A stretch of 63,945 nucleotides of DNA, the filler included, from Hausera hauseri (taxonomy: Eukaryota), in the NCBI GenBank assembly GCA_046269625.1. It is 11 parts of 11 records of this genome, joined end to end, with 100 filler letters (N's around TTAATTAATTAA, not from the genome) between each part and the next. Parts side by side here need not be neighbours in the genome. Positions count along the whole stretch, not along the records: positions 19,892 to 24,948 come from JBJURY010349157.1; 10 more parts are not named here. One strand, given 5' to 3'. Position numbers and translations under genes: made by a program. The notes beneath the pieces are model-generated. The model worked only from the letters and a program-made list of their open reading frames with translations. It had not been told where the DNA came from and searched no databases. Position 1 is the stretch's first letter; each line of letters begins with the position of its first letter. This document shows, piece by piece, positions 9,421 through 49,628 of the stretch.

Positions 9421-9421
9421 A

Positions 9422-10458: not shown

Positions 10459-10714
10459 TAGTAGAGGCGGAAACGGCCTTATTCATCCTCTGAACGAACC
10501 ATCAACCACGTTTACAAAACTTTCAAAATCAAAAAATTTTTTTTAACGAAATATCCCAAAAATATATTATACATCTTCGAACAAGAATTATGTTAATCCG
10601 AAGTCTGCATAAACATTAAGTTTTGGAGTTGCCAAATAGAAGTAAATATATATAAAGTCTTTTTGATTTCGTCACTGATTTATTAAATATTTCAACAATA
10701 ACAAATACACATAA

Positions 10715-11956: not shown

Positions 11957-12518
11957 ATGTATGCTGTTGTCTTCTCCTCGGCTAATGTAAGCACCACAGT
12001 AACCATTAGTTTACAATTCCAACAAAACTTCTATAGTACATGATAAACCGATGAGCGGTAATGTTATGATTGGCGTTTTACCCTAATACATAAAGATACC
12101 CTATCTACTCAATACATGACCGGTATTTTTATAAAGTCTCTCTTCCTCATTTTTTTACCATATTAGACTAATATGCGGTCGTTAGATCGTCACTGCTCAT
12201 GTTAGCTGCTGAAATTAGCGACCACATTATTAAGTTGGTATTTTTCAGTCCGGTAAGACAGTGACGATATAGTAGCGAGCAAAAGACACAAGAATTTGCA
12301 CAAGAGGTATACTGAATAAGTACCGTTATTTTTATGTTGGGAAAACTTGTTATGAAAATATCACTCACAAATGTTTTCAAACGTTGTATATGTATTTTAT
12401 CATGAAAAAGCCCATTCTTTTATTTCCTTTCAGTTTTTATATTGAATTATGCGCATTAAACCTTATTTTATTATACTGTATCTAGTATGTCACTGTTTCC
12501 AATGTGTTCATAAAACAG

Positions 12519-13623: not shown

Positions 13624-14640
13624 GCAAATATTCCATATTTTAAATTTATTGAAACCAATTGTTCGTTTGTCGGTCGACGAATTCGGGATTCGTTACAGTG
13701 TTTATCGAGTTTGGGATATGGTTATGATTTATCGGCAGAAAAAAACAGCGTGTTTTATTGGAACAATTTTGGTATTCTCCATTTCCATTTGAACAAGCAT
13801 AATCTTGGAATTATGTATCTCAATCGTTGTTTGGCACTGACGGAAATAGCTGGAAAGAAAGGGAAAAATACGTTAAACAATTGCACAGATTTTGGTCTTA
13901 CTCGGCCGTATGACGTTATTTACAATCTCGGTGTTCAGTTGCTTTTTGCTAATAAGCCAATTGATGATTTTGATTTGCTTCTTGAAGTTGTCAGCGTTTA
14001 CCCGAAGAATCCCAGACTTTGGCTTCGATTGGCGGAATGTTGTATCAAGGCATATCGAAATGATGATAACACAGAATCGAAGCCTAAGTGTGTTCAAACA
14101 GTTTATGGAAATTCTTCATTCAAGAGAATAGTATTAGGAAATAATACGAAAGAATTTAAAAGAACTCTTGAAGGTGTTGCTGCTATGCCAACTCCTAGCT
14201 TAGAATTTGGATCTTTGTGCATACGCACAGGGTTATTCCTTCTTCCGCGTCGATCTAATTTAGATTCTCAAAATCTTGTGGAGTGGTACAGTCAGCAGTG
14301 CTTGACTGTAAACCCAGGTGGATGTATTAAAGGTACGGATATTTTACACCTTGAGTCATCATTGCTATTGAGTGGTGCTTATATTTCCCTGTCGTTGAAT
14401 AATTATGTGGAAACAATAAGACTTTGTGAAACGTTAATGCAACAGCCTATTCTTTCTCCATATTATCAGTTTTTAGCAAGGATGTATTTGGGTGAAGCTA
14501 TGACAATGGTTAACAGTTATGCAAATGCCAGCATGTATTTGAGGTGTGTTCATACATTGAAACTTCGAGCATCGGAATTAAACCCATCGGAAAACCACCA
14601 GTGGCAATATTCATATGCGTCCGTAAAAATCGATGATAAT
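13624..14640 (+). CDS. CNOT10: CCR4-NOT subunit 10 internal TPR segment (part 2 of chimeric ORF)
   Basis: YWNNFGILHF...KHNLG, YNLGVQLL, YPKNPRLWLRLAECCI, SLEFGSLCIRTGLFLLP, AYISLSL and FLARMYLGEA correspond to the CNOT10 motifs FWNNLGCIHF..KHNLG, NPRLWLRLAECCI, SMEFA..CLRNAL.LLP and LGHLYAAEA. Confidence 0.92.
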
Positions 14641-14649
14641 CTCGAAGAT

Positions 14650-15257
14650 AAGTCAAACGAGATGGTGGAAAACGATGTGCTATCACAGCAAAGTCATATA
14701 AAATCACTTAAGATAACTCAAATGAAAAAGGACCTATCAGTTAGTCAGAATTATTTGACTCAGGCTGTGGAAATTCTTGGACAATCTCTAGTTTTAGCAG
14801 TATCATCAAATCGCTACAAAGTTGCAAGCTATGCTGCTGAACAAATGATTGATTTTTTTGGTACGATGGATCCTATAATTAGTGTTCATATGCTGAATTT
14901 GTTGCAAAGTTGTGTCACTGGAAAGAGGCTTAGAAAAATCTTGCTGAGCACCCAACGGAAAGCATCTATGGGTGCCTTAGCTGCGTTGGTTCTTCAGCAC
15001 AAATTCTTGAAGGAAAGGTCAAAATATTATGAATGTGGTCTTATTAATTCCCCGTTGTATCATTTTGTTTTGGATCAACTTAATTCTGATTTTAACGCGT
15101 GGAGAATCACGAATGTTTCTCTTAACCAGCAAGAAATTTTGAAAGATCTTTCGAACGTTTCTAACGGATTTTGTATTCTTCAACATTCCCCTAATTATAA
15201 ATATCTCTACTGTGCATTTATTGATCCGAAACCAAAAACTGCTACAACACCGAAAGT
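14650..15257 (+). CDS. CFAP46: Cilia/flagella-associated protein 46 C-terminal-region segment (part 3 of chimeric ORF; runs into gap)
   Basis: QNYLTQAVEILGQSL.LA...VASYAAEQMIDFFGTMDP...LNLLQSC...LAALV.Q...AW..TNV...ILQHSP...YLY.AFI.PKPK parallels CFAP46 Q.YLAQASEVL.QCL..A...A..ASLEMVEC.G.LDP...LALSQSC...LAALL.LQ...AW..L.V...L.LS.D...LY.A...KPK. Confidence 0.85.
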
Positions 15258-15357: not shown

Positions 15358-16187
15358 TGAACAATTTCATCATCATCATCTGTTATATCATACATCACAG
15401 GCATTTGTCTCGTATTAATTCCACTTATTCGAAATACCTCATCACTCCAATTATTATCAAAGTTTTTGATAAAAGGTGTTGTGCTTTGTTTACTGATTGG
15501 AACATAATCACCAATATTATATTTGGGTCCTATGTTTTTATCATCACTCTGTAAGAATATGTACATGTCATTAGTAACATCTACTGGATGAAGACCATGC
15601 AAACCACGATGTGGACTATTGTTATATTCTTTGATAAGTTTGAGATACAATTTTATGAGTTACATATTTTACAATCTTTCCTCGCACTGTCTGATTGGAT
15701 CGTTCACAATACATGCCTTGTATGGTAAAAGCACTGAATTGTGTTTGATTTCATACTTGTTAAATACTTCGTTCACTTTAATATTATAGAATTCCTTACC
15801 CAAATCAGTCTGCACGTATCTAAGTTAAATCTTGCTCACCATTGTTTGAATTGAATCTTATGTATACTTTGCACTTTTACTCTTTACAGGTACTGCACGG
15901 GCATAGCTGCTGAATACATCAATGCATGTTATAATATGTCGGTATCCTTTATTTATTTTATAGAATGGAATCATCTCTATCAGATCCATTTGTCACATCC
16001 AATTCACGGATTTAAACAGGTACTTTCTTGTTGGAAATCTCTTCAACACAGGTTTGTTGAGACTGTATGGCAACTGCTACCTCAACGACTTTTCCGTTCC
16101 CATTTTGCTGCCCTCTACTGCTTTGGTCAACCTTGCTACGCTTCTAAAACCAGCTGGATCTTCGGAATTGTACCATATCTTCTTCAT
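15358..16187 (-). pseudogene. Polinton/Maverick retroviral-type integrase
   Basis: WYN.EDPAGF, YSLNKPVLKRFPTR, QMDLIEM, NKGYRHIITCIDVFS, VQTDLGKEF, YNNSPH and YNIGDYV.ISK...NWSDEVF; in-frame stops; truncated by the gap. Confidence 0.9.
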
Positions 16188-16281
16188 CAACACAACAATT
16201 AGATCTAATATTAAATGTGAAATTTTGAATAGATGGACTATAGCCCATAATATTGGAATATGTTGGCATAATGATCAGTAT

Positions 16282-17130
16282 TTATGCATTTTCCTCCTTC
16301 TTTTTATTAATGGCATCATATGTGGCACCGAAAGCCTTTGTTATACCATATGATACAGCTGCAGTTGCAGCAGCTGGAAGTATATAACGGGCAAGCCGGG
16401 TAAGGAATGGCACTAGTGCTGCACATACAAATCCATTTTCCTCTTGATTTATTTGATGTAGTCGTTCAGTTTTATTTCGTATTGGGCTTTCTAGTTCCTT
16501 GAAATCTTTGTTGAATCATATATTTTTTCGCTCGTAATGCCCTTGCTTCGGCCATTTCCAGAAATGTATCTCGATACTTGTTTAATTTCTTTGTATAATT
16601 CCCAATCGTGACATTGCTCATAACAATATTCTGTAGGACGTCAATGAAATCCTCCATTATGAATGATGGAAACGCCTGTAATAGTTCTCATCTCCGTGAT
16701 CCATTTTTAATAGTGCTTCGAAATTTGGAATACTTCTAACAATTGACCTCATTATTATCCATGTGTTAAATTATTCACATACTGTTTACACACGCATCCA
16801 TTTCCGTGGTAGTTTCTTAAATGTCTTTCTTACAACCACTAGTCTAGTCGCAGTTTCATATATGGACATTGGTTTCTTTGAGAACTTAGCCTTCTTCTTT
16901 GGTTTGACTTTAATATACACTTTACTAAAATTCAGGACTAGTATTACTATGTTATTTTGTTTGTTTATAGATGGTGATGCATTTAGGATGGAATATATTG
17001 GTTTTAATTCGTTCATCATTAGTGCATTGTTGAGGGAAATCTATAAAGAGGTATACATGTGGTTTTCTTGTTGCATCCTTATATGCATCTACAGGATATT
17101 TTTTATTCTCAGGAAATGCTTGTTACAATC
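16282..17130 (-). pseudogene. Polinton small accessory/core ORFs upstream of the integrase (~16282-16762 and ~16786-17130)
   Basis: Basic ORF ending Q..NGFVCAALVPFL...LPAAATAAV resembles the small 'QxGGF' Polinton protein usually adjacent to the integrase. A second Lys-rich ORF ends KWMRV. Confidence 0.5.
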
Positions 17131-17249
17131 ATCCAGTGACGTTGAGGTCAGGATGGTAGAGGTGCGATCTACTAACAATGGCAAAGGCCCATAATGGCAC
17201 AAACCAACGAAAAAGGCAAAAAGTGTCAACACCAGTCGTACCTACCGAA

Positions 17250-19250
17250 CATTCCACCGTCCCTTCTGCCATACAACCTTTCAATGTCACAAATTGCGCG
17301 AATGCATTGCAAAAGTCCAAAACCTTTAAGCCTGTAGGTTCAACATTTCACCACATTTACGAGTTCACGCACTCCAGTTGCACAATGCCGATCTTTAAGC
17401 AGAACATCGCAACATGGTTGAAGCCGAATCTTTGTAACTTGAACGAAAAGGTACAACCCGACGGTCTACCTCTCCCCGGGCTTCACCATTTCACGTAGTA
17501 CCAAAATTGGTGGCACGCTTCGGCCTTGCGGAGATTATTGTAGGCTTAACGCCTTAACTACACCAGACAGTTACCCTCTCCCTATGATTTATGACATTTT
17601 CTACAGATTAGATGGTATCAACATATTTCCACAGGACTTACGCAAAGCTTATCATCAGATTCCAGTCGCTCCGGAAGATATTCTGGAGACCGCTATAACA
17701 ACGCTATTTGGTCTCTTCGAGTATCTCTACAAGCCGTTTGGACTCCGCAACTGCGCCAAAACATTCCAGCGGCATACAGACTTTGTGCTATCAGATCTGC
17801 CTTTGTCATTCCCATATATCGACGACATACTGATAGCTTTCGGAGACGATGACCAACACACGGAACACATGCGAACTCTTCTTAAGAGCCTCCATTACCA
17901 CAACATGCAAGTGAAGAGAACTAAATCTCGTTTCTATGCTCACTCCGTCACATTCTTGAGTCATGTTATTTCATCCCAAGGACACACGCGACTGCCTGAT
18001 TGATTACATTCTATTCGCAACATTGCTTGTCCATCGACCTTGACAAAACTGCGCAGCTTCCTAGGAATGGTTAACTTTTGCCACAAGTACATCTCTAACT
18101 GTTCTCATTTCATCGCGAACCTTTTTGTTCCAGCTTTTGGTCCGAAACGACTTAAAGTTTAATGGACGGATTCTTTAATAACTAATTTTAACACGTTAAA
18201 GTCGCAGCTAGAGGATATTAGAATTCTCGCTCATTAAAAGAAGTGCATCATTGTATTTGTCAACTGACGCATCTATAATAGCGGCAGATGCAGTCCTACA
18301 TCAAATGAACAATGAAACACATGAGCCATTAGAATTCTACAGCTCTAAATTTTCCAAACACTGAAAAGAGTTACTCAACTTTTAATAAAGAGCTACTTTC
18401 AATTTTTCTTCCTGAGAAATTTTCAGCACATGTTGACAGGAAATTCTTTCACAATCCAAACCGACAATAACCGCTAATATATATGCTACAAATGCATAAC
18501 CCTTCCTCATGCCAAGAGAAGCAAATTTCTTTTACCTCTCAATTCAATTTTAATATTCTGCATATATCATCTGAAGAAAAACGTAGCCCATTTTATGTTA
18601 CGTTCTATGTCGTCAAGCGATTTTCTCCCGGTATTCTCTCAGGACAGTCTTCGTCAAAATCCATCGTCCCCATACGATATCGCACATCTCAAGAATACCG
18701 AAACCATAGAAGGTTTCATCTTCGACACAATACTGCCGGGAACCTTACGGTCTATATTGTCAGAGGCTTTACGCAAATAAGCCTTTGACCACATCCATAA
18801 TCTTCACGATCTTGGTAATTCAAACACTTCACTAATGGTCTTCTTCACACTTAAGTAATCTGGCCAGCCATTCTTCGAGACCTTAAAACACTCGGTTTCC
18901 TACTGTATCCCATGTCCAAAATTCGAAACTTTAAGGCACATTAAACCACCGTTATATCATTTCCCAACGACGTCACATTTAGACAATGTCCATGTCGATC
19001 TCGTCGCTCCCTGCCACCTATCCGAGGATCCATTTACGTAATCACCATGCTTACAGATCAATAAGACGGCTAGACGTCATACCATTTCATAATATCCAAG
19101 CTGATACCGTAGCTAAAGCTCTCATCCTCACATGGGTCACCCTTTTCGGAACGCCAAAACACCTCACCTCCGATCAAGGACGCCAATTCGAATCCTTCCT
19201 TTTCAAAGCGTTAGCCATTCGTTTAGGGATCCTGCACAACTCCCGTCATG
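17250..19250 (+). mobile_element. CsRn1-like Ty3/gypsy pol fragment (RT-RNaseH-integrase), decayed and truncated
   Basis: FHHI, ASPFHVVPK, RPCGDY, DSYPLP, KAYHQIPVAPEDI, PFGLRN, YIDDILI, LTTDAS, VHVDLV and TSDQGRQFES; related to the elements at 27494 and 43430. Confidence 0.9.
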
Positions 19251-19891
19251 TATCCCTGTTTGAGAATAGTCCTCCAGTGCATGACACCATCCAGTATATA
19301 CATACATAAGCTGTATTTGCAAAGAACAATAAAACCACCAACAAAAGCATCATCACCGGTACAGCACGCCTTAAAATTTCTTTACAAAGTTGTACATAAG
19401 CGTCACTTCATTTCTGTTGGAGGCCCTTTTGTGTCCGCGTGCAGCTTTACGAGGAATTATTTTCTTAAAAATAAATAAAATGTTAATGAATCGCAGCAAT
19501 TGTAATTGAAGGAACTATAAATTTTGAGAAGAATTAGAATTACCGGATTCACCCAATAAAAATATTATAATGCAAAAATTAATATTTTTTAAGAAAATTT
19601 TCGAAAAAAAAGTTTGTTTTAAAAACCAACTTTTTTCCATGCTTTTTTGCAATTACTCAAAAAACAGAAAATGATCAATCCTCCTTCATGGAAATTATCG
19701 ATTTTACCAGCGTTTCTCTATACAATAAAAATGAACAATCCTGCTTCATGGAAGTTATCGGTGTCATCACCGGTGATACTCATTAATGGATNNNNNNNNN
19801 NNNNNNNNNNNNNNNNNNNNNNNNNNNNNNNNNNNTTAATTAATTAANNNNNNNNNNNNNNNNNNNNNNNNNNNNNNNNNNNNNNNNNNNN

Positions 19892-22800
19892 TATCCAATT
19901 TGGCCGTCTTTCCTTTTTTATTTAGTGGTGTATACAGCATCATAGAATCTCCTACTTTTATCTTAGGTTGTTTAGTCTTTTCGTCATAATATCTTTTATA
20001 AGTGGTTTTATTGTCTTTCTGATTCTTCTGCACTAGCTTATGTGCTAGTTGCAACCGCTCTTGCATTAATTGTTTATATTTTTCCATTTTCATTAGATGA
20101 GAAGTCGGTTTTACATTAAAGTCTAAATCAGTAGGTAGTCTAGCGTCTCTCAGGTACATTAGATAAAATGGAGTCTCCTTCGTAGCCTCATGCACTGAAG
20201 TTCGGTTTACAAATACACAAGTATTTATGTATTCGTCCCAATCGCCCTGCCTAGCACGATCGACCGTTTGTAACTTACTTTGCAAATCACAAATATATCG
20301 TTCCACCATTTCATTATTTTCTGGGTGCTAGGGTGTTGACCGTAATTTCAATATCCGTAAAATGTTATATATGGCCTGCATCACATTGCCAGTTAGATTT
20401 GATGCTTGATCTGTAAGTAAAATCCTTGGGGCCCCATAATTGAATACAATGTTCTCCACAAATTTTTCTGCAATTGTATCCGCCATCATGTCTGGCATGT
20501 TAAGGCCACAATCCATCGAGTAAAATAATCTATGAACACGAGAATGTACCCATTGCCGTTTATTGTTAGTGGTAACGGTCCGGTTATGTCCATCGCCATG
20601 AATTATAATGGGGCCGGAGGGTTGTCCCAGATTTTTAGAGGAGCTTTGAATTGGGTTCCGGTATTTTTCCGATTGGCACATAATTTGCAACTATCACGCC
20701 AGTCTTGGACATCCTTCGTCATAGTTGGCCAAAAATATTTTCTTTTTAATTTGTTTATTGTTTTCTTTACTGACTGGTGTCCTCCTAATAATCCATCGTG
20801 ATATTGAGTTAATAACACTGCTCTATTCTTTTTAGGAATTACTAACACGGGTCAATTTTGATGAATATAATACAAAAATCCATCTTTTTCTTCGTAGGCC
20901 TCGCCAAACCTAGCTAAATGACGGGCTAGCTCTTTATCCTTTGGCACAATTTTGTTTTGCATAAAATTCCTGATCATTTTTATCTCCTCATCTTCCCGCT
21001 GATTCTCCTTTATCTTCTCCGTGGATCCGTCCATACTCCATACTGCTGCGATTACTTTTTTTCTTTTTGACTCCTGCTGCATTCTGGATAAATAGTCCGC
21101 ATTCGAGTTTCGTGTACCAGGCTTATATTGAAATTCTAATGTGTAAGGTTGGAGTTTTAAAGCTCATCGTAATAGTCTACTATTGGGGTTCTCATGCTTT
21201 TTCAACCATTGTAACGGTCGATGATCTGTGTATATCACCAAAGGTTTATTTTCACTAATATAAGGTGAAAATACTTCTAGTGCAAATATGACCGCCAACA
21301 TCTCTTTCTCAATTACGGCGTACTTCTTTTGATGCTTATTTAATTTTCTCGATGCATATTCAACTGGATGTTTCTTATCATCCTTATCCATGTGTGACAA
21401 TACTGCTCCAACTCCGTAGTCACTTGCATCGGTTGCCAGTATTAACGGTTTCGTCATATCTGGATAAATTAGTACAGGAGCATTTAATAACCTTTTTTTA
21501 CATTCTCAAAAGCCTTTTGACAGTCGCTCGTCCATAATACCTTTTCTAAATCCTCCCGTAACAACTCGTAGAGTAGTTTAGCTATCTTAGTGAAATCCTT
21601 TATAAACCTTCGATAGTAATTTGCAAGCCCTAAGAATCGACGTAGTTCTTTTACCGTGGTTGGCTTTGGAAAATCTTTGATTTTGCCTACTAGTCTGTCC
21701 TGAGGTCTCACACCATACCTATCAACTCGGTGTCCGAGAAAGTCAACTTCAGTTTGAGCAAACATGCATTTCTTTGGGTTTATTTTTAGATCCATAATTT
21801 CACATCTATCAAAAAGGTCCTGTAAATCTTTCAGATGCTGCTGAAAATCTGATGATGCTATTATTACATCGTCAATATATACCATAGCATGCGGCGCATC
21901 TAGGAGTAACAGCTCCGTTCCTCGTTGAAAGGTTGGTGGTCCGTTTTTTAGTCTAAAAGGCATTCTGTTAAATTCACATAATCCTTCACCTATTGAAAAG
22001 GCTGTTTTGGGTTTATCTTCCTTTACTTCTATCTTCCAGTATTCTTTTTGTAGGTCTGGTGGTAAATATTGTCGAACCATGTAATTTATCTAATATTTCG
22101 TCAATCCTTGGTAACGGATATGTATCATTTTCTGTTATCTCGTTCAATTCCCTATAATCTACACAGAATCTCATCGTTCCATTCTTCTTTTTGACCATTA
22201 CCACCGGGGCTGTCCAAGGCGAACAGCTTGGTCGCATTATCTTATTTTCTCTCATTTCTTTTATAATTTTTCGAGCTTCCTTTTTGTCATATGATAGTCT
22301 ATATGGTCGTTTCTTTATGGGTTTATCTTGCCCGTCGTTTAATTTAATGGCATGTTGAATGACGCTCATTGTCCCTAGGTCAGTCATTCTGAGCAAATTG
22401 GTCACCATTGTTCTCCAACAATTGACTTAACATTCCTTTTTCTTCCTTGGTTAATATCTTGGAGTCTTGTAACTTTTCATCCCAATTAATAGGGGCGGCT
22501 TTTTTTTCTTTTCTTTGTTGGCCCCTCTTTAATTTCTCCGACATCTTTTTTTCAATCTTGTCTACCTCGGAAATAATCGAACTAACCTCTTCCTTTGATA
22601 TTTCCTCGATCACCGTTACCTGTCCGAGTCTAGTATTTCGTGTTAGTCTTTTTTCCTTAGTTCCCTTATTACAGATTCTCAAATGGATTCTTCCATCTCT
22701 TATTCTATCTACGTGTGGCGCAACCACGATGTCACATTATTTCATCATTTGCGGAAATGGCTCAAAGTGTACCCAAACCGTCGGCAACCTTTACTCTATT

Positions 22801-23250
22801 CTGCCAGGCACTACTACTGAACGTTGCGGGATTGTGATATCCTCAGTCAGTGAGACTCATTCTTCGTTACATTCTTCATTAAACCTTCTAAGTTGACCAG
22901 TTTTGACATCAATATATACGTTATCTAATTGGTGCAATACGTCGCATCCTATCAGTATTTTATTAGTTAAGTTTTTCGCTACTCTTATGGCGTGGTTTAT
23001 TGTTTGATCACAGATTTTGATTTTTGCGTTTAAGACAATTTTTATTTCCTCCTCCATTCCAAATGCTCCAACATTAATGTTTCTTTAGGCTTTCGTAGTT
23101 TACTTATTAGTTCATTGGGTAATTGACTCTTTCCCATTATTGTGGTTGTGGATCCTGGATCTATCAAAGCAGTTAGTCGATATCCGTTTACTTCAATATC
23201 TATTTATGGTGTCATGCAGGATCGAGGCTTGTTTAATACTAATTTTACAA
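19892..23250 (-). mobile_element. Ty3/gypsy pol (PR-RT-RNaseH-IN) of glycoprotein-bearing element C
   Basis: ALIDPGS protease (~23161), RFCVDYRELN..DTYPLPRID, YIDDVII, LATDASDYGVGAVL, YTDHRPLQWL, HD...GGH..YFWPTM..C..C, LTDQASN and VER; frameshifted. Confidence 0.95.
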
Positions 23251-23546
23251 GTAGACTCGCGATTACATGGTGAGAGGTTTTCATCATAATCCTGTTTTAT
23301 TCTTAACACTTGATATGTAGGATACATCCCTCCATGTTTCAGGTATTGTGGAGCTGATGGGTTTATCAACAATTGTTCATTATAAACTTGTCCATGGTAT
23401 TCTTCCGCAGGGTCTAGTTGCGGCAGATCAGTAACCAGCTTCTTTTGGTATTTTTGCCTGTGTGGCTTTAACGAGAATCTTTTAAGTCTATTAGTGTATC
23501 TATTACCTTTAGACCTAGTGTCTAAATCGTTATTATCATCGTCGTT

Positions 23547-24948
23547 TCATCCATTCAAGGTACCATAGGGTGAGTTCTTGTCTATGTCGTGATTTCTTTT
23601 GGTTATTTTCCTTTTCCATTTCGCGTCATGGTTAGCTAGAAAACAACTAGCTACTGCCGGAATCACAGCTATAAGGATTTTCCAAGAACACCCAACTGCT
23701 GTATGAATGCCATAGGCCTTGTCAAGTGAGGTGAATATTGTTCGTAAGGCGCTGATGATAAAATATATAACTAAAAATCCTGATGCTGCTTGACCAAAAT
23801 ATAGAAATTTTCCCCACATTCTCCATCACGTTTCTTGTGACCTTCTTCAAATAATCTTTTTCCATCAAATGTTCCCAATGAGTGAGCCTTCTCGATCCCA
23901 CATTACTTTTCTTGTTAATTATGTTACTACGCGTTGCATTTGTTGGGGGAACAACAGCATTCGTCGATAATCTAAATTTTTTGTGTATAAATTTCTCCTT
24001 GTGATGTGCCAGTTAACGGTTCAAACTTCTGATTTCTTTGTAAACTAATCAGTGCAATTATCCAACTGAATGAATTTCGTCTTGGCATCTAATATCCTGT
24101 TTACTGGCATTACGTATTGCGGTTCCATTTTATAAATCATCGGTAACTCTGAAGTGCATTCTCCGGTTTCCCTGATCGATACCTATACCCTCTTAGATTC
24201 AATCGTTATTAATACTTCACCCATTACTCTGCCAATTACTCCATCGCTAAATGGCATAACAGGTGCCATCTTATTACGTATTATTTCGTAATTTAATTTA
24301 CATCCATTTAATATTATCTCCCTATATAGGCTTCTTATTTCTTTTCTAACGTAATTAATTAAATGGCCAATTTTATTGTCGAAATACTGTGTCAATTTTA
24401 TGTCCTTCTTGTCAATTTTTGTCTTAGCTTCCACTACCTCCCTTGATGAGATATAGTCCTTTATAATTGGTTTTGAACATTTCATTAGATTTATTAATTA
24501 TTCCAGTGATTTTAAATCGCATTATTTCTTCGGATATTGTGAGTACACTACAGTCGCTACTTCCGTCATTTTTACTTCCTTAGCTCCTTCCTTATACGTT
24601 GTTTTTTCCTTTTTAGCTGTCTTTCCAATCGCTTTATTGAATTTTCCTTCTTTCAATAATGTCAAATGACATTGATTTGAAGATATTTCCCAGGTCATCT
24701 TGTACTCTCCAGTATCATATTCACCGTTCTCATATTCACATTCACTCATTATTGTCATGAGTTTAGTTTGTAAATCAAATAATCCTTCATATTCTTTCAA
24801 TTGGACCTGGTAGTCTTCAATAGCTACTGTCCTGAGTGCTATAGTACCTCCAACGTCATAATCTACTTCTTTGCAAGTTCCTTTTCTTGTCTTGTCTATT
24901 TTTCCTGTTTTATAAATTCGCGTATACTTTATTTTGTTGCGTACTGCT
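23547..24948 (-). pseudogene. Chuvirus-like (Jingchuvirales-type, class III) envelope glycoprotein, upstream of pol; N-terminus lost in gap
   Basis: G.C..VDY...VAIEDYQVQLKEY, C.Y..G...W....C...LKEG, LTQYFDNKI..LYREI...CKL, GEVLITI...V..RETGECTSELP..Y....VMPVNRIL, LLFP and the TM region WGKFLYFGQAASG...YGIH.AVG.SW.IL.AV match the consensus of chuvirus-like G proteins. Confidence 0.82.
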
Positions 24949-25048: not shown

Positions 25049-26250
25049 GGTTCTTTTGAACTTCGGACGTTGAACTTGTATCCCACGCGATAAGTATCAG
25101 TAATAATTGAATTACAAATTGGATTATATTGGGTTGTTTGGAATCGAAATTGTGAATAACGATTTGCAATATCTCGATTAATTTCTGCAACAACTTTAGC
25201 TGTGAATGAGACCTGTATATTTTCGGACGATGTTGCAAAATGTGTTCCTCAATTTTACTATCCGGCCATTTCATTTGACATGCAGCTTTTGTTGCTGAAA
25301 TTCTGGACGGTGGAGTTGGATGTGTAAGTTGATCCATCGTCATGCCAATCATATCCTTTATTTGTAGTCGATTTCTCTCGGTTTTCGCTATTCCCCTGAC
25401 TGTTTCATCGTTGAATTGCACTGGTGTATCATGCACTTTCTCTCTTTTAATAACTTTCACCTTGCTTTCTTTGACGGCGATCTCGGGTTCGGACATATTT
25501 AAATCAAAGTGTTGTATTCGCAGATAAACCAACTGCCGAACAGACGATATGAAGTCGTATAAATGCTTAGGAAAATCATTTTGCTGCAAAATTCATCTAT
25601 GTATTTGCTGAATACAACGCCAACATATTGACTAACGAAGCCACTCTCGTTCACAGATAGTGACTGCGCAAAGCTGCTGCTTACATTCTTTATAGAGACA
25701 AGTATCATCTTTAGGGATTATATATTTTTCTAAACGAGAATTTCCAAAACACAATTTATCCGATGACTGGAGAATATTCCACATTATTTCTGGAGCAACA
25801 GGAATTTCGATTACTGTTACGAAATTAGGTTGAACGTCTTTCGGGATGTGATTGTTATAGTCATTTGTAAAACAAAACTTTTCGTGAATTTGTGTAGACT
25901 TGGCCCAATTGTAAAATCTTAATCGAAAATCTGAACAAATGTATATCTTGGTAAACCATTCTGATTGTCTATCTTCGAATGTTCCAATACAATATCCGGA
26001 TATGTAAACTGCAAATGAAGTGCGATCAACACTCATAATAATTAAGTAATCATTTGCACTCAGTTCTGAACAAAGACTGGCAATTTTCTTTATTTCTGAT
26101 TTGTCGTTCATGAGCAAATTCTGCCCGATTGCATGCACTAACCTCAGACTACATACTTGTAGCCCTTGTTCGGTAAACTTGAAATATTTCGATACGTTTA
26201 AGTTGGTTATCATAATTTGGGTCACATATTCGGTATTAAACAAGTGCCAA
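25049..26250 (-). pseudogene. TOR kinase N-terminal HEAT-repeat fragment, copy 1 (intronless, with stops)
   Basis: Visibly highly similar to 33541-34503. LLQKLIEILQIVIHNFDSKQPNIIQFVIQLLLILIAW parallels mTOR LMEEKFDQVCQWVL...SKN.LIQ.TIL.LLPRLAAF; the assignment rests mainly on copy 2. Confidence 0.65.
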
Positions 26251-26578
26251 AAACCGTCAAATGGTAAATATAACCACTTCATTTTTCCTTTGAGTCTACA
26301 AATCTGTGGTGTTCTGGATGAACAAATGAACGGATGTCGTCACGATGGTCGGTCCTGGTGTATATTTTTCATCCCACTCCTGGCACCATTGTTGTGTTTC
26401 TCCCGATTGAGAGCAAATCTCATTAGTATGGTAAAAGGCTTTGCAATTCAAATAAAACACACCTCAGAGTGCCATTCCCGACCGCCATTGGCCGGGTCGA
26501 TGAACACCGCATAAAATTGAGATCCACAATACAAAATATGCTTCATTCAACGGCAATATCCAATACAAGTACTACATT
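26250..26578 (-). pseudogene. Degenerate PHD-finger-like exon, possibly NSD/MES-4 family
   Basis: Follows a ttgcaaag| acceptor. Frameshifted reading EC...LYCGSQF...DP...GTLRCVL..CKAFYHTNEIC..SG resembles NSD F.C.LH.C..C...P...G...RC..C..AYH.N..C...G. Confidence 0.42.
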
Positions 26579-27049
26579 CTTTGCAACAATAAACAAAACT
26601 TCGCGAAAACCAATCGAAAAAAATTTTTAATCAAAATTTAACATGGCCATAAAAATTTCTTATTTAAACAAGTTAATTAAAATTTTTATGATGCAATCGG
26701 GCAAATCCGCCAAATGACAATTCCGACACTTGTTTGCTACGTGAACAGATATTTTGACCAAAAATAAATTTTTTGTTAAAGAAATATATTTAATACATCG
26801 CATTATGCATATATAGAGCTAAAACGCGTTTATGATTAAAGACTGATCACAGCTAATTACTTTTCATGAATGCTTACTTGTTTTAACCGCAATCTATTAA
26901 ATTGTAATTTTTGTACAATGAAATTCCTTTACATCAAGGGATAACAACAATTATTATATATATATTTTTAATAAACAAGAAAAATTTTTGTTCTCCTTCC
27001 TTTACTGAGTAACGTTTGAAGTAATTCCATTAAATACGTTCCTCGCTTT

Positions 27050-27410
27050 TTTTTCGCCGATAATTGACTATCTGACGAATTGCTTTTATCCGAGCTCATT
27101 GAATTTTGATAGCATCGTCTATCGTTTCAGTAAAATCTAATTTCATTTCTTTACATGCTAGTTCAATTTCCGTTTTATGCTTTTGTGATTTAAATTCGAC
27201 AAAAAAATGTTTCGAATTAAATTGTTCTTTAAAATATAACAACAATTTCGTTGGTAGATAGTATTTCTGAATCCAGCTAATCTAATTAATAAGACGATGT
27301 CGATTTGATGGTTTCAAAGGGTGGATTGCCTCAAGTGATTTAATACGCGCAGGTCAAAGTAGATAACCCGGACTTTTAACCCATGCGGTATCATTGATAC
27401 TGGATACCAT
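27050..27410 (-). pseudogene. PWWP domain fragment
   Basis: MVSSINDTAWVKSPGYLL*PARI...ISWI...LL.FKE matches PWWP GD.VWAK..GYPWWPARI...AW...L..F; in-frame stops. Confidence 0.65.
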
Positions 27411-27493
27411 ATTGATAACGATCTTTCGTCTATTTTGGTTTGAAAAGTGATTTTTATTCTTGCGATCCGGGTGATGATGTCGACTTAGGCGAA

Positions 27494-30400
27494 TGTGGGC
27501 CGATAGACTGCCAAACCAACAAAGCCCGGTAAGTCAACACCGCGGCATCAAACACCACGGTCATGCGGCGTCGTGTGCCGAAGCAAAACCAGGACTTGTG
27601 GTGACGCCCGAAACTGTGGCACCACATTACCCCCGTGGCAAAATAAGATTATGTAAAGCAAAAAATGAAACTAAGAAGCTGCAAAGAGAGTAGTTAATGT
27701 GATCTAATCAGTTTTGGTATGAACAAGACGTTGAACCTTATCTATATTTTGTTCTCTGCTATATTTGCTGAAGGTAATTATCTTGCTTTGTTTAACGTGC
27801 TGTTTGCTTCTTTGTGTCTGTGTTCGGGGTGAAGTTCTATTTTGATTTGCCTTCTTAGCAGGTTGAGAACTGGTAGGTATGCCGTTTAGTGTTGTTGGGG
27901 GTCTTAGAGTAGCAGGTTGTCATGTAGGTAGATTGGAGGAAGAATTGAAGGAGTCGAAAAAGGTTTGTGCAGACTCAACTGAAGATTCCGGTGTGTCATT
28001 GACAAAGAATGCTGGTTTTACGTTAGTTATGTGTACTTTTTGTTCTTTATAGTTTTTGAGTATAGTAACTATGTGTGAGGTATTATTGAGGACTTTAAAT
28101 GGTCCTAGATAGTTTGGTTGGAATCCGGAAGGTGAAGGGTTTTTAGCCACACAAACTTTGCGTTAAATAGTGAATCAGGTAAGTATGTTTTGTCACCGTG
28201 TATTATTTTGCAGAAGGAATCCTGGCTTAACTGAACGAAGTGATTTTGTGCAGATCGAATAGTTTCGTCAGTTGGTTTGTTGTCCAAATTGGTAAGTTTG
28301 AAGAGTGCACGGAATGTGGTACCGAAAAGTGCTTCGGCAGGTGAGCAACCCGTAGTAGTAGATGGTGTGTTGCGCCAACCAAGTAATACGAAATGGAGGA
28401 TGTTGGTCCAGTTCGTATGTGTTTTAGCTAGAATCTTTAGCGAAATTTTAAGTGTGTGGTGAAATCGCTCCAATAAGCCGTTCGACTGGGGATGGTATGG
28501 AGTAGTATGAATATGGTTTATACCCAGTCGATTAACTAAGGATTTGAATAGGTTGGATTCAAACTGGGGGCCTTGATCTGTAATTATATAGCGTGGTGAA
28601 CCGAACCGACTAATCCAGGTTCTTATGAATGCGTCGGCTATGGAGTCTATATTGATGGATCGCAGAGAAACGACTTGCGGCTAACGAGATGCACGGTTTA
28701 TCATTGCTAGTACGAATTGGTGGCCGTTATTAGAAGGCAGTGGGCCCACAACATCTAGGTGGACTGATTCAAAACGGGACGTGCAGGGAAAATAGCATAA
28801 TGGTGGTTTAAGATGCTTGGCTACTTTAAACTTTTGGCAAGATACGCATTTCCTAACCTAGTTTTGCATATTAGACCTCATTGATGGCCATGTTACGTGA
28901 CGTTTGAGGAGCCGGAATATATCTTTGGAACCTAGGTAATGCAACGAATGAACATGCTGAAATGCGGTCTGTTGGAGAGAAGGTGCCAAAATTGGTAATT
29001 GTTGCCCTGGCGTCGACGTGTCCATAACTATTCCCTCAATCAATTGTACAGATTTGTATCTTTTAAGAGTTTCAGCTGAAGGAGGATTTTGGATTAATTG
29101 TTCTTTAGAGAATATTGGCGTGACGCTAATAGCACCAACTGACCGTGATAAGAAATCGGCTATTAGGTTGTTTGTGCCGGCAATATGGCAAATTTTAAAG
29201 TTAAATGTTGAAAGATATGATATATATCGTTCTTGTCGAAGTGATGGTTGTTTCATGTTCCTTACGTGAACAAGAGGTTTGTGGTCCGTTTAAATGGTAA
29301 AGGAACGAGCAATAAGTAGGTGAGCAAAATGTTTCAGAGCTAAAACAATGGCCAGGGGTTCTCTATCGAAGGTAGAATAACGGCGTTCTTGTGGTTGGAG
29401 CTTGCGTGAAAAGAGTTCTAACGGTTTATTTATTTCTTGAGATATTTGATGAAGAACCGCTCCCACTGCTGTCGTTGATGCGTCGGTTGTTAAAATGAGG
29501 TCAGCATCAGGTTTTAAATAAGCTAAAATCTCGACTGTTTTGAGCTTGTCGCGAAGTTCATCGAACTTGTTAATAAGTTCTGGTGTCCAATATATGATCT
29601 TTTTCTTCGGCCCTGCTCCTAGTTGAGTGAAAGGAGCGGTTAACTGGCTACAATGTGGGACGTATTTATGTTCAAAATGTAAAGTTCCGAGGATTCTACG
29701 CATATCAGTAGTAGTTTTTGGTAGCTCAATGTTTTGTAGCTGATGGATTCTATCAGGCTGTGGACTGTAACCATCAGGTATGATGACGTGTCCAAGGAAA
29801 GTTACCTTTTTCTGAAAGAAGGAACACTTAGAAAAGTTCACTTGCAAGTTCTAGTTGTGCAAACGTTGGAAAACTAGTCTAAGATATTCTTCGTATTGTT
29901 TGAGCGATGCCGATGAGACTAGTATATCGTCGATGTACGGATATGCAAATGACAAGTCTGAAAAGACTGAATCAATATGCAGTTGAAAGGTTTGTTTTGC
30001 GTTCTTTAAACCGAACGGCATGAATGCATATTCAAAGAGACCAAAAGGTTTTATTATGGCCTTCTTTTGGATGTCTTCGCGAGCTACCCGTATTTGGTGG
30101 TAGGCTTTTTCAAGATCTATAATCGAATAAATTGTGGTCTTGTGTAAAGAATTCAATATATCTTTTATCAAAGGTAGAGGATAGGCATCCATGGTAGTTA
30201 CGTTATTAAGTTGGCGATAATCGCCGCATGGGTGGAATGTGCCATCTTTTTGGAATGACGTTGAGTGGTGCTGCCCACGGTGATTTTAACCGTTTTATTA
30301 TGCCGGCTTGCTCGAGTGCAGAGAATTCCGTTTGTACTACTTGTCGACGGCCTGGTGAAAGTAAGTGGAGTTTTTGCCTAACAGGCTTGGGATTTTCTGT

Positions 30401-32649: not shown

Positions 32650-32679
32650 TCTATATTGTAATGAGGTATGACTTTTATT

Positions 32680-34503: not shown

Positions 34504-34651
34504 TTGTAAGTTGGTGAAAACCACGTTGCCAAAAATCAAGATTGAAATAAAAATCAAAATCATCAACACCATCATCAAAATCAAAAAATGCGAATGGCAG
34601 AAATTTCGAAATCTCAAAAAATTTTGTCACAAAATCTACTAGTGTTATAAA

Positions 34652-34717
<66 letters not shown>
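34652..34717. repeat. (CAT)22 microsatellite at contig end
   Basis: Direct reading; it explains the poly-Met ORF 34454..34717. Confidence 0.98.
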
Positions 34718-34821: not shown

Positions 34822-36200
34822 TCAATCATTGATTACGCTCTGTGGTACCATCACCCTTAATTCTCTCTCAGTGATTTTATGGCGCTTAACACAGCAATTT
34901 TGGTAATCAATCGACAAAACGCAATAAAAATTGAGAGCAAATACTGACGTTCCAATAATCGATGTTAATGACAAAGTTGTCCATTTAGTTAAATTTCTCA
35001 TTTTAGCGGTAGTCATAATTTCATCCTCCGTTTTCTCATTAATCAGTGGTTTTGTTACGACAATCTCATTTACAGTTCGTACTGCGAACATTCTACTTTG
35101 TTTGCTCTCTGCACTCATTTGTATTATATAGTCCGTTTTGGATTTCAGACCGGTGCATTTGGTTCGATAGCTACCTTCAACCAATGTTACTTTCTGATTA
35201 TTGTGTAATGTTCGGCAGCTTATTTCTACGTTGCAGTTAAGGGTCTCTTTTACAATGAACGTTATTTCACAACGTTGCCTCCAATATTTTATAGGAAGCA
35301 TTTCTAGATCCTTTTGAAATAATCCACTCGTTAGAGTAATTTTGGTGGATATCGGAGTGGTAGTCCTTTTTTGTAGTTCTACTCATTATCTTCTGCGGAA
35401 CTTGCCCGATTGGATTTCCAAACTGGTAACTTCCTTAATAAATACTCGACTGGTTTAGTCGAACTTCCTATAAGTCTAATCGAATTCTGTATTTATATTT
35501 TTGCGGTAAATTGCAACATCTTTTCGGTCTTTCAACGTCAATTCAACAGTATTGTTGGTCCGGAGCTGCTTTGTTCTCGACCGTTAATTAATCGCCCTTT
35601 GGTATTTATTTGGACACAGTTGTCCTTCGGATTTTCCGTTATACGGCCTATATTTTCCTCTAGCATCTGTTTTAATGGATCATTGGATTGGAGTATGTCT
35701 TCCAGCTTTATGTCAAGGTAGTCTCTATAAGTTCGTAGTTTAACTAAACATGAATTCATCCTTATTTCAGCGTGTACATGATTACAATTTGGCAAATATG
35801 AACGATAGCTGAAGGCGTAAGAGTGTCCGTACTCTACGTTACAGCAACTAGTACAATGTCCTGGTTCGAAATGGCACTCGAACTCGGCTTGGTTTGACAA
35901 GTCATGGAGTAGTATTTGAATTCGTCGTTTATATGGTCCTAATAACTTAAATTCGACACATGGTACTTCTGGAGATAAATAATCTAATTCTATTGCTCGT
36001 AAACATTTTTCATCTTTTTTGTTCGATTTGCGTTCGGAAGTTTTTTCTTTTGGCGATGAAGGTTTTAATCCGCTTTTTTTATTCCATATACATCATTCAA
36101 CAAAGTTTCATCTATCCACCATTGAGCATTAGTCTTAGGCGCTAGGACAGGAATCAATGTTAAGGCTACTATTATCTGTGCATAAGATACTGGTCTAGTG
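34822..36200 (-). pseudogene. Type I membrane protein (signal peptide, Cys-rich ectodomain, Thr-rich stalk, FN3-like domain, TM) fused 3' of the integrase of element D
   Basis: In frame after the integrase tail YNLRPR: QIIVALTLIPVLAPKTNA|QW. Then CHFEPGHCTSCC..CNH..C, TTKRTTTPISTKIT, CTGLKSKTDYIIQMSA (FN3 GL.P.T.Y.V.V.A pattern), TM WTTLSLTSIIGTSVFALNFYCVL and a CC-containing tail; frameshifted. Confidence 0.62.
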
Positions 36201-39200
36201 ACAATCGACGATGTATTTTTTTCTCGCGGCCTTAGATTGTAGTGTTTAGCTGGTCTTACATCCGTTTTAAATACTCTTTGGACTGATACGATTTCCTCTT
36301 TCCCATTTTTGTTAACATAGACCGTGGTTGGCATTGTGAGGATGATTGCATATGGTCCTCTTCCGGTACGTGTTAATTTCAAGAATGTACCCTTTTTCGC
36401 GACTGGGTAATATATATAAACCCAATTTCCCTTTTTCAGATCATGAAGTTTAATCTTTTTATCATATTGTTTTTTAAATTGTTCCTGATATTCTAGTGAT
36501 TACGTTTTTGCCACTTCCCAACACTTTTGTAATCTTGTCTGTAATACTTCAGCAAAGTTTTGCTCTAGATCCTCGAGGTTTGTTTCCTACGGTGTCATAC
36601 TTAGATCTGTGGGTAAGATTGCCTCTCCTCCATACATCATAACGAACGGTGTAAATCCTGTTGCTGGATGTGGAGTTGTATTAATTTCGAACTGGATCCC
36701 TTCTAGGAATTCGCCCCAACCCTTCTGATCTTTGACCACTACTGTTGATAGTATACGGATGACTGTTGCATTCATACGTTCGACCATCCCATTACACTGG
36801 GGGTGATAGGAGGTAGTATTTAAACATTCGATTTCAATATCTTAGAAATTTTTTTAAATAGTTTGCTTGTGAAGTTCCTTCCTCTGTCTGTTAAGATTTG
36901 TTCTGGTGGTCCGTATATGCAGATGATTTTTCTAACTACTGCTTCGGATAAAGTTTCTGCCTTTTGATCGAATATTGCCACCAGTTTGACGAAATGCGTT
37001 AATCGATGCACACATTTTAGGATGTATCTGTTATTTTTGTGAGTTTTTGGCAAAGGTCCTACTATATCCATAGACATGGCTTGCATAAGCCTATCTGGTA
37101 CGTTTATGGGTTTTAGTTATGCTACGTAGCCTTTTGTTTTCTTTTATTTTATCGCGCAAACTTCGCACGCTCCTACCCAATTCTTCACATCAATATAGAT
37201 GCTTGGCCAATAGTATTTATTTAATATTCTTTCCATGTGTCCGGCTAATTATGAATCGTGTTCGGCCATGAGTACTTCGATGCGCAATTCTTTTGGAATA
37301 ACTTAGTCTTCTTCCTTTTCGCTCGTAGTATAGTATATTATCTTGGTTCAATGCATGATATTTATGTCCGTGTTTCTGTAGATGCTTTTTCAGTTGCCGT
37401 CCCTTCGGTATTTTGTCGTTCTGTACGAACTCGATAATTTGTTGAATAACCGTGTCTTTAGCCTGCTCGACTGTAATTCCGATCGTCTTATCCGATATTA
37501 GAGTTCTTTGTCGTTCAATCAACTGTTCAGGTTGTGGCTTTTTATTGTGGTAATTGCACTCCTTTTTGTCTTTAATTTTGACAGTGCGTCAGCGTTGACG
37601 TGTTTATTACCCGGTTTGTATTGAAATTCAGTGTTATATAGTGAGATTTCTTCGATCCAACGGTTTAATCTACATGTTGGGTTATTATCTCGTTTTCTCA
37701 ATGTTGTAACTGCTTTGTGATCAGTCACTATAATAATCTTTTGCCCATAGACTAAGAAATTAAAATGTCGGAGTGCTTCTTTTACGGCTAACGTTTCTAA
37801 TTCGGTAACCGAATAATTCTTTTCTGCTTTTTTAATGAGAGTCCTCCATAGGATATTTGGATGTTCTAATTCTTTGTCTTCTCGTTTCTGAGCTAATTCG
37901 TGTCCTATACCTTCTTTACTTGCCTCTGTATTAATAATGAATGGTACGTTAAAATCCGGGTATTTTAAAACTGGTTCGCTTATCAAAACTTCTTTCATTT
38001 TGTCAAATGCTTTTTGTTCCACTTCTGTTCATCTCCACTTGGTTCCTTTTTTCAGTAGGCGATATAGTTGCGCGTTAATTTTCGAGTTGCCTGGTACGTA
38101 AGTAGAGTAATATCCACATAGGCCTAACCAATGTCTTAACTCTTTGTGATTCTGTGGTTCCATACAATCGAATATTTTATCTAGCAGGAATTTGTCCGGT
38201 TTTCATCCTCCTTCTCCAACGATGTGTCCGAGGTATAATACTGCGTTCTGTGCCCATTTACCTTTCTTTGGATTTAGTTTTAGCCTTGCTTGTTCTAGCC
38301 AAATGAGTGTATCTTCAATGTCCTTTAAGTGTTCCTCCTCTGACTTTGATGCTATCATCACGTCGTCTAAGTAAGCGAATGCATGATCAAGTCTCATAAA
38401 CATTTTATTCATCATTCTAGGAAAAATAACTGGTACTGTGGTTATGCCGAACGGCATAACATTAAATTCATATACGCCATCGTGCGTTTTGAACGCTATC
38501 TTATATCGATCTTTTTCTTCAATTTCTACTTGCTAGTACCCCGATTGTAAGTCGAGAGTGGTAAACCATTTCGCTACCGATAGTCTGTCTACAGCTACTT
38601 TTACTGACGGTAGGGGAAACGGGTCTTTCATCATCAGCGTATTTAATGCTTGATAATCTATACAAAACGGGTGTTTTGTAGTTTCTTTCTTTTTAACCAT
38701 AATTACAGGAGAGAACCATGATCGAAAACTTGGTCGAATTATATCGGCCTTTAACATTTGCTTTACTTCTTTAATTATTTCTGGTCTCCGTGAATGAGGA
38801 GGTGGATACCATTTAGGCATTTTCTGTTCTTCTAGATCGATTTCGTTACTTAAGCCGGGTTTTTTCCTTAATGGGATTTTTAATCTCAAAGAATTTGTGC
38901 TGCCTATGTCTTCCTTATTTTGTGCGATTATTGAACGATATTTGCATAGTAATTCGTAGAACTTGCAATACGCTTCAGGAGAGAATTTGGTTGCAACATG
39001 AAATGGAAATTCAACACACTTGTATGGTTTCTCCTCTACTGTCACTGCCGATACTCTGCAAGTGTGACCTAAAGTGGTGTTAGCGTGCAATTTTACGTGA
39101 ATTGGTGCATTGTTTACTAATCTCATAGATATTCATCCCGTCACTACTCTACATAAAATGTTGCTAAACAGGAGGTTTGGATCGATATTCTCCTGAGGTT

Positions 39201-39700
39201 CGAAATATACTGGTAGATCGTCGTCTTGACGAATTTGTGCGAAAATTATCATTTCGGTTCTTGACGGAATGTCTTCATCCACCGGAATCCATACTTTGCC
39301 GATTTCCTTTCCTTTATTAGTTTTGTCCCTTCTATTGGTTCGAGCTCAATTAGTTCTCCGTTATGCACATCAATTGCCATGCCTGGTATTTGTTTCAATA
39401 TATTGCAATCTAGTACTACATCGTCTGTTAACTGGTCCATTATCGCAAATTCATGTTGAAGTGCTTGGCTCATCATATAAACGGTAGGGGTCCATTTAAA
39501 TTTCGGCTTCGATACTTGCCCAAATGCTTCTACACTACGTGGGTCCGATGATGCTGGTGGGCATAGCTGGTCTCACAATGTGATTAGTATAGATTCATAT
39601 TTTATAAATGACTTTTCTGATACTGTGTCAATTAATGCATACACCTCCCAATCTTCGACGTGTATTTTAGCAAAAGTCTCCCTTCTGTCACTGTTCCGTA
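36200..39700 (-). mobile_element. Ty3/gypsy pol (PR-RT-RNaseH-IN) of glycoprotein-bearing element D
   Basis: YALIDT protease (~39630), FCIDY..LN..KDPFPLP, TTLDLQSGY, YLDDVMI, VTDHKA, NADALS, MDIVGPLP, LTDRGRNF, VERMN and GRGPY. Confidence 0.95.
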
Positions 39701-40238: not shown

Positions 40239-41925
40239 TTACTGTTTTTTATTTTTAAGTCTATACAATATCGAGATCTTTCCTTGCCGTTTACGATTAT
40301 AGTAGCCGACGTGGCGTTCTACGTCATTCTTCCATCGATTTTCCTCACAGGCCTTAAGCATTTTCCCGAAAGGTGTGATAATTGCAGTCAGAATTTTACA
40401 GAAAACTCCCGTTAATGTGAATATTTCATAACCGTTTATGACGGCTTGGACTACTGCTTTAATTCGCTGGAATAAAAAGTAGATGGATAGAAATCCAGAT
40501 GCGGCTTGTCCGAAAATCAGAAACCTTCCCCAAATCTTATGCAGTATTTCTGAGGTTACTCTTTGATAGTGATTCGCACCGAGTAACGATTCCCATTTCG
40601 TTTGAAAGCGGGTATCGTCCATGACCATTGACATGGCCCGATTCAGTTCATAAGTTCGTTGTCGTGGAAATGCTAAGAATTGCCTAATAGCTTCTATGTC
40701 TTTTGGCCTATAAATTCCCTTATTAGCCGTGTCCTCGAACTTTCCTTCTGATAATACTTTTTTTAACTTTGTCCTAATTAGCTTACCGGGCCTGTAGCAG
40801 CGCCTCTGTTCGGTAAACTTATCCAGTCAATTCCGCTACATCGAAGCATAGGGTCGCCTAATCTCGTTTTGCATTCCTTCAGTATGCTTGGTTTCGTTGA
40901 GTTTGCCAATAATACTCTGGTAAGTGGCATTGCTAGTCTCGGCATATTTTCATAGATGACTGGTAATTATTGCATGCACCTTTTTTCTTCTACGTTGATT
41001 GGTATGTCTCTTTTTTCGCATTCATACGTTAATAGGACTTTTCCGGTAACTCGTCCAAAAACGCCTTCCTTCAACGGTATAATTGGTAATGCTAGTTCTG
41101 GGTTGGCATAGACTGAGGCCAGCTTGGTTCTCATGACTTCAGTATCTATTTGCAGTCATTTCTTATCATTTTGTGGTATAGTTCCGATATTCCGATTTGC
41201 CCTTTATAGTAGAAATAGTCGTCTTAATTTTTGAGGTAATCCTCGATCCGTATGTCTTGCGTTTTCAAATCATTCGTTTTCATGTTAATTTCGGTTTTTG
41301 CTACGAAAAATGCTTTGTAGTTTGTGGCATACGTAACTACATCACAGCGTGTTAACATCTCCTTTCTGATGAGCTTTAAACCGTGTGCATCCGATATTAA
41401 TATCGTTGGTTTGCGATGTTCTACTACATCTTCCCTTGATCTGTTGATTGTCAGTAATTTATTTGTATAACGTTTTCCGGTTGTCTCATTAAACTTTAAT
41501 TCTTCGATTTTAATGAAATTACAATCTCTCTTGGAAGGTGGGCTGCATACAACGACTGAACTTCTGAACGTGCAAGCACCATCTTGGATGTGACACTTTT
41601 GATTTTCGGTGAATAGTTTCGTAGCGTTATGAAACATAGCTTTTAGAAATCTTAACTCGATTTTGTAAAAATCTACGACTACTATTCCTCCCTTCCCTGT
41701 TTCATATTCTCCTCCGGCACAATAACCGGTGTGCATGCTCAATTTTTTTACTGCCACTTTGTAGGCTCTGATTATTTTCCCTTATTGGGCTTCTAATTCC
41801 ATGTTGTCCCAAACCATTTTACCGGTTAACCGGGCTCTTAAACAATGCTGTCTATCTACGTTCATCGGAATCAATGGCGTGGTAGGTTTAATTATCGAAG
41901 AATGTCTGTACATATTACCACAATG
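40239..41925 (-). pseudogene. Chuvirus-like envelope glycoprotein upstream of pol (element D); extreme N-terminus lost in gap
   Basis: HCG.MY.HSS, C.RA.LTG, GYCAGGEY...IVVV, CHIQDGAC, LYH...C, GVFGRVTGKVL...C, C...LPVIYEN...MPLTRVL, GIY...DI..IR.FL.FP and WGRFLIFGQAASG...INGY.IF...G...IL.AI. Confidence 0.85.
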
Positions 41926-49618: not shown

Positions 49619-49628
49619 ATTGATTGAA

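Follow-up and report, generated by a model that had tools for sequence, protein, structure and literature searches.

A decayed gypsy-type retroelement of Hausera hauseri with a chuvirus-type glycoprotein ahead of pol

Retroelements of the Ty3/gypsy type that carry an envelope gene (env) ahead of pol have been described before (the articles cited here are drawn on in excerpt). In Burro (GYPSM1), a giant gypsy element of planarians, Gag is followed by a ubiquitin/SUMO-like and a BCL2-like domain and then by an env that matches mononegavirus glycoproteins; this env is in frame with gag before it and pol after it, and a dUTPase-like domain separates protease (PR) from reverse transcriptase (RT). 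Decayed pieces of such elements, carrying stops and frameshifts, are noted in one planarian (PMC6431247). GAG-ENV-POL elements with an env of the glycoprotein B (gB) type were reported from Nematoda, Bryozoa, and Platyhelminthes; their env diverges with pol, and the elements are not monophyletic (PMC13524379). Here we analyzed a stretch of 63,945 nucleotides from Hausera hauseri (assembly GCA_046269625.1; hereafter the window), which consists of 11 contigs joined by spacers (N44-TTAATTAATTAA-N44), and in particular element C, which makes up one whole contig (JBJURY010349157.1), and element D, on another contig.

An earlier sequence-only reading had noticed that in both elements a glycoprotein (G) precedes the pol domains, and had implied that this order was new. 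That implication does not hold: the in-frame env and the PR-RT insert of Burro and the GAG-ENV-POL elements of three phyla were already published, and element C alone adds no new architecture. Non-canonical endogenous retroviruses of nematodes, which Sacco et al. are said through a citation to have treated in 2022, reportedly also place ENV before POL, in a continuous gag-env-pro-pol open reading frame (ORF). Element C is a dead copy, very probably a decayed member of a Burro-like env-before-pol gypsy retrotransposon family of the GAG-ENV-POL type.

Element C and its intact relatives

Pfam matches on the minus strand of C follow the order of G pieces, aspartyl protease (E 0.0035), RVT_1 (4e-18), RT_RNaseH (8e-35), and Integrase_H2C2 (3e-21), with an rve match beside the last; a beta-rich insert lies between the protease and RVT_1. 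The env thus lies 5' of pol on the same strand, and pol has the order PR, RT, RNase H (RH), and integrase (IN) with a gypsy-type RT, as in Ty3/gypsy elements (Metaviridae). Three of the five stop-to-stop pieces scanned in the G region match PF24664 (Monjiviricetes_fusion; E 1e-5, 0.0088, and 2.5e-10). The stop that closes G (23549-23547) is followed about 380 nt further by the protease motif ALIDPGS (23170-23150), in agreement with the sequence-only reading, which had put the protease within about 400 bp of G and RT, RNase H, and integrase after it. The linker in between has no Pfam match at E<=10 and is likely the G tail or a spacer ahead of the protease.

What remains of G in C is the C-terminal ~80% of the ectodomain, the membrane-anchor region, and the start of the tail, interrupted by stops and by an out-of-frame stretch (about 24045-23826). 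The cut in G falls about 120 residues after its start, C beginning near residue 510 of P0003, whose G begins near 393. C runs from one end of its contig to the other; because the contig cuts both G and integrase, the 5' part of G, gag, the LTRs (long terminal repeats), and the post-integrase region are out of sight. With at least 12 stops (12 on the segments checked) and at least six frame changes, C lacks the intact ORF by which PMC13524379 admits errantiviruses, a property of the copy, and activity is impossible for this copy. Its protease active site reads D-P-G, compared with the textbook D-T/S-G, and judged by this motif the protease of this copy is likely inactive.

A HMMER search with the G frame of C (stops as X) returned 241 proteins at E<=0.001, the best of which are long polyproteins; a word-indexed search with the same decayed frame matched none of 2390 candidates. 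Among 20 of these proteins that were scanned, P0003, P0006, P0009, P0017, and P0026 each encode G ahead of PR and RT within a single ORF, and in P0002, P0005, P0007, P0008, and P0015 G is followed by PR. P0152 (4844 aa) and P0154 (4029 aa, from a cluster of 20) likewise hold G, PR, and RT with G first, and at locus L002 the order G-PR-RT is present in contiguous DNA within a 3426-codon ORF. In the intact relatives, G, PR, RT, RH, and IN all lie inside one ORF of 2,100-4,800 residues, and C is collinear with all six relatives that were aligned to it. This collinearity argues strongly against an accidental or misassembled order and bears out the conserved family architecture proposed earlier; far from being absent elsewhere in the family, G comes first in eight intact relatives, in frame with pol.

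The region ahead of G was examined in 15 relatives. A CCHC knuckle lies 5' of G in seven of them, the remainder being mostly N-terminally incomplete, and a hydrophobic segment directly precedes the G start in most. P0015 has a Retrotrans_gag match. In P0012 a CCHC match is followed by a ubiquitin-like one (E 0.031) and a Bcl-2-like one (E 0.055), all before G and in the order described for Burro. A Bcl-2 match was also found in P0004 (E 0.00096), P0002 is another relative in which the ubiquitin-like and Bcl-2-like domains are weakly seen, and P0152 carries ankyrin repeats. The protease domain is single in C and in D and repeated in several relatives, up to four times in some. By analogy with these intact polyproteins, the family of C would have an upstream gag, LTRs, and an in-frame fusion of G and PR.

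Several other carriers of related G proteins were recorded. The complete G-pol polyprotein P0003 bears a Flavobacteriaceae label from a metagenome-assembled genome, probably through contamination. P0148 has immunoglobulin domains fused to a PF24664 G, and in P0055 G is fused to RNase H. A scan of genome contigs found no relative, and in a scan of viral contigs the sole match was L001 (1-11270), a chuvirus-like genome with a Mononegavirales-type L, a PF24664 G, and a third ORF.

The copy number of the family was assessed in a public run (X1, contigs only), which holds the stretch with a share of 0.38 and may be the source sample; the likeness threshold was 85%. To C mapped 8081 contigs of this run, most at no more than 95% likeness, covering 30 of 30 bins; C therefore belongs to a many-copy family. 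Among the 40 difference rows listed of 637, five of the 12 stops of C, the one closing G included, differ in other copies, compared with an expected overlap of 0.28 if differences were evenly spread and of about 0.75 if they were drawn randomly from the 637, so those stops look private to this copy.

We also considered that C might be a chuvirus G fossil lying by chance beside, or misassembled onto, an ordinary gypsy pol. Fragmentary gypsy copies commonly lie beside such fossils with no clear sign of capture (PMC10084718), G and PR of C sit in different frames, and none of the eight contig pieces listed of 8124 extends across 23160-23600. Among the 15 joints listed of 37, however, contigs from other copies have parts flanking the border of G tail and linker (shorter side 76 letters) and that of linker and PR (47); these joints are defined at the level of contigs with the intervening letters unspecified, and give partial support for the junction. 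D repeats the order of C, C is collinear with single-ORF relatives, and its G groups with the G of retroelement polyproteins, apart from the stand-alone type of about 650 residues. A chance or artifactual junction is accordingly extremely improbable.

A profile of the PR-RT insert, built from five relatives, matched both C and D (E 9e-11 and 3e-12), confirming that the two share the beta-rich insert seen earlier; Pfam gave no match to dUTPase. The insert was evaluated as a family marker and rejected: it is common in gypsy relatives and not diagnostic, being present in 11 of the 25 RT relatives whose ORF has no G. Of the other 14, several are pieces of insufficient length to contain it.

Descent, fold, and proposed role of the glycoprotein

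C and D are well diverged, as had been claimed: their identity is 41% in RT and 22% in the ectodomain part of G, and blastn gave no match between them at E<=1e-3. The two motifs that the earlier reading had given as common to both G proteins, WGKFLYFGQAASGFLVIYF / WGRFLIFGQAASGFLSIYF and GVIGRVMGEVL / GVFGRVTGKVL, were recovered where it had placed them. Its description of the elements as independent stands for their divergence and fails for separate origins. The G tree has 41 rows, taken from 101 passing of 182 candidates: every long one, the short relatives that bear a name, and the 14 best of the rest. In it a single retroelement clade, apart from the stand-alone G proteins, contains both C and D, with a support of 100 in the SH-like approximate likelihood ratio test (SH-aLRT), and independent G captures by the two elements were thus rejected. 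Within this clade C pairs with P0012 (SH-aLRT 93). In the RT tree (37 rows), C and D join five polyproteins that carry G, together with a fragment from the same cluster (SH-aLRT 87), and in the tree of RH and IN (20 rows) C is sister to the group of G-bearing polyproteins (SH-aLRT 97). P0017 with P0026 and P0006 with P0152 are grouped in all three trees. A sister relationship of C and D was also rejected, the pairing being recovered in none of the three.

Comparison of G and RT identities across 10 elements revealed that the two diverge together (rho 0.76, p 0.002), a figure open to inflation by the decayed state of C and D; without them it is 0.70 (p 0.012). This co-divergence also supports the conserved family architecture. 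G seems to have been captured once, with C and D as diverged descendants. A single old capture followed by divergence is the simplest reading, although P0017 and P0026 form a second G-bearing group in the RT and RH-IN trees, and G may have been exchanged.

The same trees bear on whether C, with its order real, is part of a GAG-ENV-POL lineage distinct from the planarian Burro-like one, possibly in a host phylum from which this order has yet to be reported. The non-monophyly of GAG-ENV-POL elements (PMC13524379), the RH-IN tree, where C is sister to the main G clade and outside it, an RT identity of only about 50%, and the second Pol group of P0017 and P0026 would fit such a lineage. The decay of C, however, lengthens its branch, and its G is nested among relatives with planarian-type motifs and the ubiquitin/Bcl-2 order. 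Of four short motifs taken from the env rows of six planarian Smed errantiviruses, at least two occur in 10 of the 19 retroelement relatives of G, against none of 67 stand-alone G proteins, with one each in C and D; this sharing is suggestive only, because the motifs were picked by eye after the relatives had been seen. We regard a separate lineage as unlikely and favor membership in the Burro-like family; a flatworm host would be plausible.

To describe the fold, the G of C was represented by the natural G of L002, modeled from a 74-sequence alignment (predicted local distance difference test [pLDDT] 90). Compared with solved structures, the model resembles herpesvirus gB (E 1e-13), and compared with viral models, it resembles chuvirus glycoproteins (E 2e-42); a G profile found no sequence match in the Protein Data Bank (PDB). 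Together with PF24664 in C, this predicted fold points to an env of the herpes simplex virus gB class III type. The RT-RH part of L002 has its best PDB match in Ty3 (E 5e-92).

In a proposed mechanism, an intact element would be translated as one long polyprotein comprising Gag, accessory domains, an internal signal peptide, the G ectodomain, an anchor, PR, the insert, RT, RH, and IN. The internal signal would send G to the lumen of the endoplasmic reticulum, whereas PR-RT-RH-IN, beyond the anchor, would end up back in the cytosol. Release of the enzymes by the protease would follow, while Gag packages the RNA into an enveloped particle, the gB-like fusogen would carry this particle into neighboring cells, and RT and IN would make a new genomic copy. 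Alternatively, in the same family G may anchor the polyprotein to membranes or drive direct cell-to-cell fusion, with no free-particle entry. The location of G in the Pol ORF of the relatives would force equal amounts of both and a membrane-tethered Pol, and particles of the family are themselves presumed. A simple anchor, however, would not need the whole class III fold, which is retained with its cysteines, and we consider this alternative unlikely relative to particle entry by a Burro-like element.

Several points weigh against the assignment of C to a Burro-like family with these properties, besides the unspanned junction and the differing frames of G and PR. All trees are quick trees with SH-aLRT support only, and in the RH-IN tree D is a long branch without resolved position. 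No long repeats were found in C, D, or L002, and gag, LTR, and primer site are invisible in C and D, which end at contig ends. The ubiquitin and Bcl-2 matches of the relatives fall below the Pfam cut-offs. The comparison with Burro and Smed sequences is limited to short motifs picked from the Smed rows, and an exact search for the membrane-proximal G motifs found none in the PMC13524379 supplements. Membrane topology, particle formation, and fusion activity are drawn from the intact relatives.

Post-integrase region and other contents of the window

All six intact relatives that reach past the integrase have at least two hydrophobic segments in the post-integrase part. In the corresponding region of D (Table 1), the signal-like segment passes the hydrophobicity threshold of the relatives and the presumed anchor fails it. 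Comparison with Atlas FN3-type families gave 0.90-0.91 for the L002 tail (named FN3 clusters) and 0.93 for the D piece 34825-35382, all below the recognition mark, and Pfam fn3 had no match in the tails at E<=10. The piece of D is the top match of a tail profile (E 0.069 among 1169 pieces); pairwise tail matches are weak, and the single-sequence fold of the L002 tail has a pLDDT of 36. At 4727-5371 and 8960-10279, after the integrase and between proteases, L002 is predicted to encode extra membrane proteins of the single-pass kind, whose FN3-like Atlas matches are weak. The word "Fibronectin" is absent from the consulted text and supplements of PMC13524379, from the consulted part of PMC5408684, and from the Burro section of PMC6431247. 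The predicted post-integrase membrane protein of D and the relatives may be unreported, though figures or supplements of the Burro papers could show it.

A tentative possibility, which we hold to be doubtful, is a polyprotein with two envelope proteins and up to four proteases, in which a gB-like fusogen before pol would be joined by a single-pass, FN3-like, captured host-receptor-like protein after the integrase, serving as attachment partner or signaling decoy. If this FN3-like protein is real and conserved, it would be a testable candidate for how gB-like fusogens find their target cells. Just 3' of the L002 polyprotein, a separate 496-codon ORF (10617-12107, plus strand) has an RNase_T exonuclease domain (E 1e-5), reminiscent of the additional DEDD-type ORFs found in LTR elements of rotifers (PMC5408684).

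Table 1. Features of elements C and D (positions in the window)
Feature	Position	Strand	Basis or remark
Element C	19892-24948	-	Whole contig
C: glycoprotein, chuvirus-type PF24664, predicted gB-like class III	23550..24947	-	Pfam, collinearity, fold of intact relative
C: linker, 117 codons, in frame with G tail	23196..23546	-	Length varies among other copies (joints)
C: aspartyl protease, single copy, frameshifted	22860..23212	-	Pfam and relatives
C: beta-rich insert between PR and RT	22599..22859	-	Profile of relatives; position of Burro dUTPase-like domain
C: RT, YIDD, one frameshift	21493..22381	-	Pfam and relatives
C: RNase H	21167..21505	-	Pfam
C: integrase (H2C2 zinc domain, core, part of C-terminus)	19893..20851	-	Contig end before GPY/F motif
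Element D	34818-41925		Contig of same window
D: G pieces, same clade as G of C	40242..41925	-	Pfam, collinearity, G tree
D: PR, insert, RT, RH, IN	36188..39650	-	Pfam, collinearity, insert profile
D: post-integrase region, signal-like hydrophobic segment and FN3-like piece	34825..36190	-	Weak

Elsewhere in the window, gypsy elements without visible G lie at 25049-34717, 42026-46940, and 15358-19791. The first has terminal direct repeats of about 970 bp (88.8% alike) with open frames of 235 and 181 codons, and the second is 77% identical to it. Decayed pieces without Pfam match occupy 47041-51347, 51448-59447, 59548-63945, and 15360-15659; from their look we take them to be Polinton/Maverick-like. 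Segments 49250-51258 and 56460-58507 are 74% alike, and a RING-finger frame lies at 53385-53984. A stop-free frame of 914 codons (12514-15255, plus strand) contains three Mon1-type longin domains in its first ~370 residues, the remaining ~540 having no Pfam match at E<=0.01; judged by eye, several host genes may have contributed intron-free pieces to it, joined in frame. Pieces of a mariner-type transposase, an IS1595-like transposase, and an ARID domain were found on the minus strand at 6629-7108, 5381-5905, and 43073-43483, respectively.

Comparison with known systems

C and D add two diverged, decayed members to the published env-before-pol gypsy group, and they support a single old capture of G followed by co-divergence with pol. 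With Burro, as far as the excerpt of its description goes, C shares env before pol and an insert between PR and RT; the ubiquitin/BCL2 order is weakly seen in P0012, P0004, and P0002, and ankyrin in P0152. C differs from Burro in its short spacer between G and PR and its one protease, and the relatives in their predicted post-integrase membrane protein and repeated proteases. Smed_errantivirus_1-6 of group C1a, in the consulted part of PMC13524379, have a Ty3/gypsy pol with a gB-type env 5' of it, as in C; those elements are intact and mostly multi-copy, whereas C is decayed and cut at its ends. Mosquito BEL/Pao elements with a chuvirus G (Dezordi 2020, consulted in part) are a further case in which an LTR element has captured a glycoprotein of this family. 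Their backbone is BEL/Pao, whereas C has gypsy-type Pfam domains and the RT-RH of its relative L002 is closest to Ty3.

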